From NCBI RefSeq assembly GCF_048403405.1, contig NZ_CP183129.1: a DNA stretch of 64,000 nt; one strand, 5' to 3'. The stretch comes from Escherichia coli. Its GTDB lineage: Bacteria; Pseudomonadota; Gammaproteobacteria; Enterobacterales; Enterobacteriaceae. The notes under the pieces are model-generated. The model saw only the letters and a list, made by a program, of their open reading frames with translations. It ran no database searches and was not told the origin of the DNA. Within the stretch, counting starts at the first letter, position 1. Every line of letters begins with the position of its first letter. Shown here piece after piece: positions 11,216-12,987 of this stretch. The position numbers were made by a program, and so were the translations under genes.

Positions 11216-11468
11216 TTATCGGGCTTTTCTTTAAGGGTAGTCATTCGCTCCGCCTGGTGGGCGACAAAGCGTGCGGTGGATCACGTTTATTTACCTGTCA
11301 AAAAATATAACGCACTAATATCCATGGAATTTATAAAAATACAGATTTCGTGTTGTTTTTCATTTTCAGAACATTCAATCCTGCTCTCGCCGCAATCATG
11401 TTATGCCATTCCTGATCTGGATAATAGGCACAGGCTATCTTATTGATAGTTTATATTCATGTAATTGA

Positions 11469-11482
11469 TTGATTCCTATCAA
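11469..11482 (+). promoter_or_regulatory. FNR-type site TTGAT-TCCT-ATCAA upstream of ccp/yhjA
   Basis: Perfect match to the TTGAT-N4-ATCAA consensus about 110 bp upstream of the ccp start; ccp is known to be FNR/OxyR controlled. Confidence 0.5.
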
Positions 11483-11589
11483 AAAGCGTATCTCCCTGTT
11501 TTTTATGATGGCTTTGTCTCGCAGAGACGTTTGCAGCATTCTGGAAAATTTTCTGGGTCACAATAACTCACCACCGTGAGGGAAGAATA

Positions 11590-12987
11590 ATGAAAATGGT
11601 CTCACGTATTACCGCGATCGGCCTGGCTGGCGTCGCGATTTGCTATTTAGGGTTATCTGGTTATGTGTGGTACCACGATAATAAACGCAGTAAACAGGCT
11701 GATGTTCAGGCATCTGCTGTCAGTGAAAATAATAAGGTTTTAGGCTTTCTCCGCGAAAAAGGATGCGACTATTGCCACACGCCTTCGGCAGAATTACCCG
11801 CCTATTATTATATTCCTGGCGCGAAACAGTTGATGGATTACGACATTAAGCTTGGATATAAATCTTTTAACCTCGAGGCCGTGCGTGCGGCTCTGCTGGC
11901 TGATAAACCCGTTTCGCAAAGCGATCTGAATAAGATTGAATGGGTGATGCAGTATGAAACTATGCCGCCAACGCGTTATACCGCGCTACACTGGGCGGGT
12001 AAGGTGAGTGATGAAGAGCGGGCGGAAATACTCGCCTGGATTGCAAAACAGCGCGCGGAATATTACGCCAGCAATGACATTGCTCCGGAGCATCGCAATG
12101 AACCGGTGCAGCCCATCCCGCAAAAACTGCCTACCGATGCGCAAAAAGTGGCGTTGGGCTTTGCGCTGTATCACGATCCCCGTTTATCGGCTGATAGCAC
12201 CATTTCATGCGCTCATTGCCATGCGTTGAATGCGGGGGGCGTCGATGGCAGAAAAACATCGATTGGTGTTGGTGGCGCAGTGGGGCCGATTAACGCGCCG
12301 ACGGTATTTAACTCAGTATTTAACGTTGAGCAGTTCTGGGATGGTCGTGCGGCAACATTGCAGGATCAGGCTGGTGGACCGCCGTTGAATCCGATTGAAA
12401 TGGCGTCGAAATCCTGGGACGAAATTATTGCTAAGCTGGAAAAAGATCCGCAGCTTAAAGCGCAGTTCCTCGAAGTCTATCCGCAAGGTTTCAGTGGCGA
12501 AAATATTACTGATGCCATTGCTGAATTTGAGAAAACATTAATTACGCCGGATTCCCCATTTGATAAATGGTTGCGTGGAGATGAGAATGCGCTGACGGCA
12601 CAACAGAAAAAAGGCTATCAATTATTTAAAGATAATAAATGTGCAACTTGTCATGGTGGTATTATTCTCGGCGGACGTTCCTTCGAACCGTTGGGGCTGA
12701 AAAAAGACTTTAACTTTGGTGAAATTACGGCGGCGGATATTGGTCGTATGAATGTTACTAAAGAAGAGCGCGATAAATTGCGTCAGAAAGTACCCGGTTT
12801 ACGTAACGTTGCACTAACGGCACCGTACTTCCATCGCGGTGATGTGCCGACGCTGGACGGGGCGGTGAAACTGATGTTGCGCTATCAGGTAGGCAAAGAG
12901 CTGCCGCAGGAGGATGTGGATGATATCGTAGCTTTCCTGCACAGTCTGAACGGGGTTTACACGCCGTATATGCAGGATAAACAATAA
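11590..12987 (+). CDS. ccp: Di-heme cytochrome c peroxidase
   Basis: 465 aa; multiple CxxCH heme-binding motifs (CDYCH, CAHCH, CATCH); synteny (yhjA). Confidence 0.9.
   Translation: MKMVSRITAIGLAGVAICYLGLSGYVWYHDNKRSKQADVQASAVSENNKVLGFLREKGCDYCHTPSAELPAYYYIPGAKQLMDYDIKLGYKSFNLEAVRAALLADKPVSQSDLNKIEWVMQYETMPPTRYTALHWAGKVSDEERAEILAWIAKQRAEYYASNDIAPEHRNEPVQPIPQKLPTDAQKVALGFALYHDPRLSADSTISCAHCHALNAGGVDGRKTSIGVGGAVGPINAPTVFNSVFNVEQFWDGRAATLQDQAGGPPLNPIEMASKSWDEIIAKLEKDPQLKAQFLEVYPQGFSGENITDAIAEFEKTLITPDSPFDKWLRGDENALTAQQKKGYQLFKDNKCATCHGGIILGGRSFEPLGLKKDFNFGEITAADIGRMNVTKEERDKLRQKVPGLRNVALTAPYFHRGDVPTLDGAVKLMLRYQVGKELPQEDVDDIVAFLHSLNGVYTPYMQDKQ

Follow-up and report, generated by a model that had tools for sequence, protein, structure and literature searches.

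The region described here lies in a 64-kb stretch of an Escherichia coli genome, hereafter the window, which is 98-99% identical overall to E. coli strain C4. Two divergent genes flank the region. On the minus strand, positions 9536-11185 encode treF, the cytoplasmic trehalase, as an open reading frame of 549 aa that is recognised by the NCBIfam model NF009773 TreF (1216 bits) and by the Pfam Trehalase family and is annotated treF in RefSeq. On the plus strand, positions 11590-12987 encode ccp (yhjA), a membrane-anchored three-haem cytochrome c peroxidase, as an open reading frame of 465 aa with the Pfam domains Haem_bd, CCP_MauG and Cytochrom_C and the RefSeq annotation ccp. The spacer between the two genes is 404 bp long and AT-rich (33-38% GC) and, since treF and ccp are divergent, carries the promoters of both. 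The 701 bases around the FNR site described below are 100% identical in strain C4 and were found in 5422 of the 5426 complete E. coli genomes. A search of Rfam found no known RNA in positions 11150-11700. Elsewhere in the window, comparison with strain C4 shows a 768-bp, IS1-sized insertion between gadA and gadX.

Within the spacer, at positions 11469-11482, we found the palindrome TTGATTCCTATCAA, which matches the FNR core TTGAT-N4-ATCAA at 10 of 10 positions and whose centre, 11475.5, lies at -40.5 from the predicted transcription start. The original prediction had placed a perfect FNR site exactly there, in the treF-ccp intergenic region and about 110 bp from the ATG of the peroxidase gene; all of this holds, with both flanking genes identified by NCBIfam, Pfam and RefSeq as above and with 114.5 nt separating the site centre from the ccp ATG at 11590. 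The window contains two perfect copies of TTGAT-N4-ATCAA, compared with 0.13 expected from dinucleotide-preserving shuffles, and none of 100 shuffles gave two. A position weight matrix for FNR was built from the 63 ChIP-seq-positive sites in Table S6 of Myers 2013 (PMC3688515). With this matrix the ccp site scored 14.6 bits, slightly under the median of 15.0 for the 63 bound sites because its spacer, TCCT, is not a preferred one. It nevertheless ranks second in the window, and shuffled windows gave 0.3 matches at or above its score. No second FNR site with up to two mismatches was found within 400 bp upstream of ccp in E. coli, and a CRP site in place of the FNR site was rejected by inspection, the half-site being TTGAT and not TGTGA.

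The site is widespread in the species. Of the 5426 complete E. coli genomes, 5393 contain the 40 bp around the site, 3803 of them without any difference, and a K-12-like genome carries an identical copy of the site at the same distance from the ATG. In the one variant examined, strain ExPEC XM, the differences fall outside the FNR core. Mobile elements were also seen at the site in two strains: in AR_0118 an IS1 is inserted 6 bp after it, and in fS54a the site is split by an IS5-like element.

Downstream of the palindrome, on the plus strand, a -10 hexamer of the ccp promoter (TATGAT, 11504-11509) begins 21 bp after the FNR site. No -35 match was found at this promoter, as is expected where FNR occupies that position. 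A generic promoter scan, which needs a -35 element, does not call the ccp promoter; as a class II promoter is expected to lack this element, the missing call is not evidence against it. From promoter geometry only, transcription is predicted to start on the plus strand at 11516, a G and the seventh base after the -10. A start at about 11516-11517 would place the FNR centre at -40.5 or -41.5 and give a 5' UTR of 74 nt, and it falls within the interval of 11515-11525 that had been proposed earlier. The geometry thus supports a class II position for the FNR site relative to the predicted start: the site overlaps the -35 region, a -10 follows at 21-23 bp and an independent -35 is absent. Partridge and colleagues reportedly mapped the FNR site to -40.5 in 2007, in agreement with the geometry inferred here. 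No mention of yhjA was found in the accessible portions of start-site datasets, and the gSELEX sigma-factor papers name only the gadA-yhjA spacer or an intragenic peak, with the ccp promoter absent.

The predicted leader contains two small hairpins, both on the plus strand. The first, at 11516-11528, is the inverted repeat GTCTC-GCA-GAGAC, a possible 5'-terminal stem-loop at the predicted 5' end of the mRNA. About 13-14 of 20 representatives have a hairpin of another sequence in this position (mean z of -1.08, individually weak), and in an alignment of Escherichia and Citrobacter two pairs of the 11516-11528 stem are changed on both sides. It is uncertain whether this hairpin is a part of the regulatory unit. 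The second, CTCAC-CACC-GTGAG at 11567-11580, overlaps the Shine-Dalgarno sequence GAGG (11578-11581) with its 3' arm. In Escherichia, Citrobacter and Pluralibacter its stem is nearly invariant and its loop variable, and no informative covariation was found among these genera. The predicted 5' UTR as a whole does not fold more stably than shuffled sequences (z = -0.92), and neither small hairpin appears in its predicted fold. With covariation that is weak or uninformative, the hairpins are given as observations and not as firm features.

Upstream of the palindrome lies a second regulatory site, which the original prediction overlooked. The sequence ATAG-N7-CTAT-N7-ATAG-N7-tCAT at 11424-11460 (centre 11442, about -74) matches the OxyR consensus: 14 of 16 tetranucleotide positions agree here and 12-15 of 16 in other genera, the inner T and A of the first half-site being the ones that do not fit. 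The exact three-element core, ATAG-N7-CTAT-N7-ATAG, occurs twice in the window, where only 0.16 occurrences are expected even when up to one mismatch is allowed. The four ATAG/CTAT-type elements of the whole site stand one helical turn apart, as in an OxyR-activated promoter. Given this OxyR-type site at a fixed offset of 45 bp before the FNR site, the ccp promoter is a composite of OxyR and FNR sites, that is, a 'no oxygen AND peroxide' gate.

The conservation of both sites was assessed beyond E. coli in a single scan of species-representative genomes with a Ccp protein, which yielded 40 loci. An FNR-type site with 0-2 mismatches is found 86-122 nt before the ccp ATG in Escherichia, Citrobacter, Pluralibacter, Trabulsiella and most Providencia, as well as in Entomohabitans, Hafnia, Enterobacillus, Buttiauxella and an Enterobacteriaceae MAG; the distance is about 158 nt in Yersinia and 226 nt in P. 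heimbachae. The half-sites and their spacing to the -10 are kept across at least 11 genera of Enterobacterales, counting the unclassified Enterobacteriaceae MAG. A conservation profile was then drawn from 15 species-group representatives of at least 11 genera, anchored on the FNR site. Mean identity is 0.93 in the FNR half-sites, against 0.50 in the 4-bp spacer between them and 0.45 in the 20 bp from the FNR site towards the -10; likewise, it is 0.87 in the OxyR tetranucleotides, against 0.59 at the positions between them and 0.57 in the 8-bp gap that separates the OxyR site from the FNR site. When 16 sequences were aligned with MAFFT, the columns without variation were those of ATAG/CTAT/ATnG, of TTGA...CAA (7 of the 10 positions of the FNR core) and of A2, A5 and T6 in the -10. 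This is the pattern of a phylogenetic footprint, with contact positions conserved, spacer and flanks variable, and the position in the promoter fixed.

The spacing within the promoter is also constrained. All 20 representatives have a -10-like hexamer 21-23 bp downstream of the FNR site, which would put FNR at -40.5 to -42.5. The OxyR-type site begins exactly 45 bp ahead of the FNR site in 21 of the 22 species, and this offset is 56 bp (45+11), one helical turn more, in Providencia burhodogranariea, a natural variant that suggests dependence on the face of the helix. The interval between the FNR centre and the ccp ATG, in contrast, spans 86.5 to 226.5 nt. As a neighbour of ccp, treF is confined to Escherichia and Citrobacter; the other genera keep the OxyR-FNR module without a treF within 2.5 kb. 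Since the module persists upstream of ccp where treF is not its neighbour, it belongs to ccp.

Regulation of ccp by FNR and OxyR has already been published, and our analysis adds no new mechanism. It is credited to Partridge, Poole and Green (2007, Microbiology 153:1499) in the relevant passages of PMC10301912, PMC4207228, PMC2690998 and PMC6831887. Double regulation of yhjA by OxyR and FNR is described (PMC10301912), and curated interactions list activation of yhjA by FNR under anaerobiosis and by OxyR (PMC4207228). Independent ChIP-qPCR found FNR bound in vivo at yhjA and treF (PMC2690998). The gene is induced only when H2O2 is present and O2 absent (PMC6831887), and its product lets the respiratory chain take H2O2 as terminal acceptor (PMC8115020, PMC12051229).

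Our combined findings indicate that the palindrome very probably serves as the FNR operator in the ccp promoter, a sigma-70-type promoter of class II that is controlled by OxyR as well. This reading draws on features observed here, namely the sequence itself, its geometry relative to a conserved -10, the conservation and spacing of both sites and their linkage to ccp. In the proposed mechanism, dimeric [4Fe-4S] FNR would bind TTGAT-N4-ATCAA under anoxia, centred about 40.5 bp before the start, where it would stand in for the -35 element and recruit RNA polymerase to the TATGAT -10; the exact start and the contacts with RNA polymerase are inferred. Next to the FNR site, upstream and in a fixed helical register with it, an OxyR tetramer would occupy the site centred near -74. 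For ccp to be fully transcribed, FNR would then have to be active (no O2) and OxyR oxidised (H2O2 present), and the Ccp so produced would allow the respiratory chain to use H2O2 as electron acceptor; the dependence on the two regulators and the physiology are taken from the literature. The proposal that FNR activates ccp anaerobically is therefore supported by geometry, conservation and published work; it was incomplete in that it missed OxyR and with it the AND logic.

A first alternative is that the palindrome is FNR-like and silent, occluded in vivo by H-NS and IHF, with ccp driven mainly by OxyR. Genome-scale data lend it some weight. Table S6 of Myers 2013 lists the same site as its reverse complement, TTGATAGGAATCAA, under yhjA/treF with a PatSer score of 14.16, and classes it with the predicted sites that gave no FNR ChIP-seq peak when cells grew anaerobically in glucose minimal medium; the site, which lies in AT-rich DNA, is also overlapped by ChIP-chip enrichment of H-NS and IHF (PMC3688515). 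In the same study, neither yhjA nor treF is named in the table of FNR peaks for an hns/stpA mutant, and the text counts only five silent sites with prior evidence of FNR regulation, with yhjA unnamed (PMC3688515). Absence of yhjA from the available part of the supplements of a second genome-scale FNR study points the same way. However, the ChIP-seq cultures contained no H2O2, so that the ccp promoter was outside its inducing state, and ChIP-qPCR under other growth conditions was positive. The published genetics also names FNR as a regulator, and yhjA was about 2-fold higher anaerobically in the wild type (Table S12 of Myers 2013, PMC3688515; the direction of the ratio was read from the footnote to Table S11). 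Finally, an unused palindrome would not be expected to show half-site-specific conservation in at least 11 genera while its spacer varies, together with constant distances to the -10 and to the OxyR site. We thus consider a silent palindrome very improbable.

The simplest reading of the mixed ChIP data may be that FNR occupancy at ccp depends on growth conditions. A stricter version, which we regard as possible yet rather unlikely, is that FNR loads only when oxidised OxyR is bound to the adjoining site, the half-sites otherwise staying unoccupied and covered by H-NS and IHF in plain anoxia. If this were so, the 45-bp (or 45+11) register would reflect a stereospecific assembly of OxyR, FNR and RNA polymerase, and the AND gate would be set at DNA binding and not merely at polymerase recruitment.

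A second alternative is that the palindrome serves the divergent treF, instead of or besides ccp. In its favour are the symmetry of the site, the spacer common to both genes, a high-confidence DISTILLER prediction of treF as an FNR target and the positive ChIP-qPCR signal for the region (PMC2690998); treF was also 2-fold higher anaerobically, if only in an hns/stpA mutant (Myers 2013, PMC3688515). Yet a ChIP-qPCR signal from a 400-bp region common to two genes does not tell them apart, and the layout of the spacer disfavours treF: 290 bp lie between the treF ATG and the site centre, the sole generic promoter-like match for treF (11244-11215) is about 230 bp away from the site, and by inspection no good minus-strand -10 is found at class II distance, a position that falls within the OxyR site. 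In addition, treF neighbours ccp only in Escherichia and Citrobacter, and the module persists elsewhere. A role of the palindrome in treF expression therefore appears extremely unlikely as an account of the site, although a minor extra effect on treF may exist; an operator for treF alone was rejected in view of the cross-genus conservation together with the lost treF synteny. A chance palindrome was likewise rejected, being hard to reconcile with the half-site-specific conservation across genera.

The composite FNR-OxyR promoter of ccp can be set beside two known classes. At canonical class II FNR promoters, FNR near -41.5 replaces the -35 element, and some of them, such as nirB, have a second activator upstream. 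The ccp promoter resembles these in its TTGAT-N4-ATCAA site, the lack of a recognisable -35, a good -10 at 21-23 bp and a second regulator upstream; it is unlike them in that the upstream partner is the peroxide sensor OxyR, whose signal seems at odds with anoxia, and in that the inferred FNR centre in Escherichia and Citrobacter ccp is -40.5, compared with the canonical -41.5. Classical OxyR promoters (katG, ahpC, oxyS) carry the consensus ATAGnTnnnAnCTAT-N7-ATAGnTnnnAnCTAT, with OxyR adjoining the -35 region. Like them, ccp has a four-element OxyR-type motif and is a curated target of OxyR activation (PMC4207228). Unlike in them, the OxyR site of ccp lies farther upstream, near -74, a shift that roughly equals the width of an FNR dimer site, and OxyR appears to act there only together with FNR. 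The closest comparison is the yhjA promoter of E. coli K-12 (Partridge, Poole and Green 2007), at the same locus, with the same 14-mer and the same regulators, FNR and OxyR; nothing of substance differs, the window being another E. coli strain. The ccp gene of Neisseria gonorrhoeae is also activated by FNR; its product, however, is a different enzyme, a di-haem lipoprotein, in a distant organism.

The FNR site is one half of a switch that limits the cytochrome c peroxidase to niches that are both anoxic and peroxide-containing, for example the oxic/anoxic interface in the gut, at which E. coli is able to respire H2O2. To the published regulation we add a sequence-level confirmation in another E. 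coli strain and the finding that the OxyR-FNR module is conserved with exact spacing across Enterobacterales and travels with ccp. We also note that genome-wide ChIP data label the validated ccp site 'silent', and that such labels depend on growth condition.

The ccp site is not the strongest FNR-type match in the window. The best one, TTGATTTTTATCAA at 31660-31673, lies in the spacer between chuT and chuA and scores 17.9 bits, above most bound K-12 sites. Its centre lies 114.5 nt before the ATG annotated for chuT, and a Fur-box-like sequence follows about 70 bp downstream of it. No mention of direct FNR control of chuTWXY was found in the accessible parts of the relevant literature. This haem operon includes the anaerobic haem-degradation genes chuW and chuY, and among four diverse strains only one substitution was seen in the nearly invariant stretch that runs from the FNR-type site to the Fur box.

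The FNR site of the ccp promoter (11469-11482) does not stand alone, but is directly preceded by a four-element OxyR-type site (11424-11460). The distance from the start of this site to the FNR site is exactly 45 bp in 21 of 22 species, which belong to at least 11 genera. The remaining species, Providencia burhodogranariea, has an offset of 56 bp, that is, one additional helical turn relative to the others. The original prediction for the ccp FNR site made no mention of the adjoining OxyR-type site. A second exact copy of the three-element OxyR-type core (ATAG-N7-CTAT-N7-ATAG) is found in the window at the hdeD start and hdeD-hdeA spacer (24537-24562, minus strand; placed via the coordinates of the closely related E. 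coli strain C4), and may be a chance match.

In genome-wide data from anaerobic minimal medium, no FNR ChIP-seq peak was reported at the ccp FNR site, which is listed as a “silent” FNR site covered by H-NS and IHF enrichment (Myers 2013, Table S6; PMC3688515). The text of the same paper leaves the ccp site out of those silent sites that have earlier evidence of FNR regulation. The site assigned to the silent class is one that has been validated genetically.

The ccp promoter is naturally disrupted by insertion sequences in two strains, at the place that corresponds to window positions 11469-11490. In AR_0118, an IS1 lies 6 bp 3' of the FNR site, between this site and the -10 element, and in fS54a the FNR palindrome itself is split by ISKpn26 (IS5-like).

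Downstream of the promoter, the ccp leader carries two hairpins, neither of which matched an Rfam family. The first is a small hairpin at the predicted +1 (GTCTC-GCA-GAGAC, 11516-11528), and about 13-14 of the 20 cross-genus representatives have a hairpin of different sequence at this position (mean z of -1.08). The second (CTCAC-N4-GTGAG, 11567-11580) overlaps the Shine-Dalgarno sequence and has a variable loop and a nearly invariant stem. The leader block around it, TTTCTGGGTCACAATAACTCAC..., shows stronger conservation than the promoter spacer. These hairpins may affect translation or mRNA stability.

We found a second perfect FNR-type palindrome in the window, TTGATTTTTATCAA (31660-31673), in the chuT-chuA intergenic region. 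At 17.9 bits it is the top match in the window to the FNR matrix, a position weight matrix built from 63 ChIP-seq-positive sites. The annotated chuT/shuT ATG (~31552, minus strand) follows 114.5 nt downstream of the centre of the site, and a Fur-box-like sequence, GAATGATCATGATTATCATT, ~70 bp downstream. No good -10 candidate was found at class II distance from the site, and thus a class I position is more likely. Activation by FNR would make sense, since anaerobic haem degradation (ChuW, ChuY) is a function of the chuTWXY operon; direct FNR control is not mentioned in two relevant papers. The region with the site is carried by 2236 of 5426 E. coli genomes, and the stretch of the chuT spacer from the FNR-type site to the Fur box shows a single substitution among four strains. 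The chu genes are absent from K-12, and the site is therefore invisible to ChIP studies in K-12.

The third-ranking FNR matrix match in the window (14.45 bits), TTGATTTTTATCAT, is located upstream of gadE (23096-23109) and corresponds to the gadE site ATGATAAAAATCAA, for which an FNR ChIP-seq peak is present (Myers 2013, Table S6; PMC3688515). Elsewhere among the gad genes, the gadA-gadX spacer contains, relative to strain C4, an insertion of ~768 bp (window positions about 15003-15769), which is the size of IS1.
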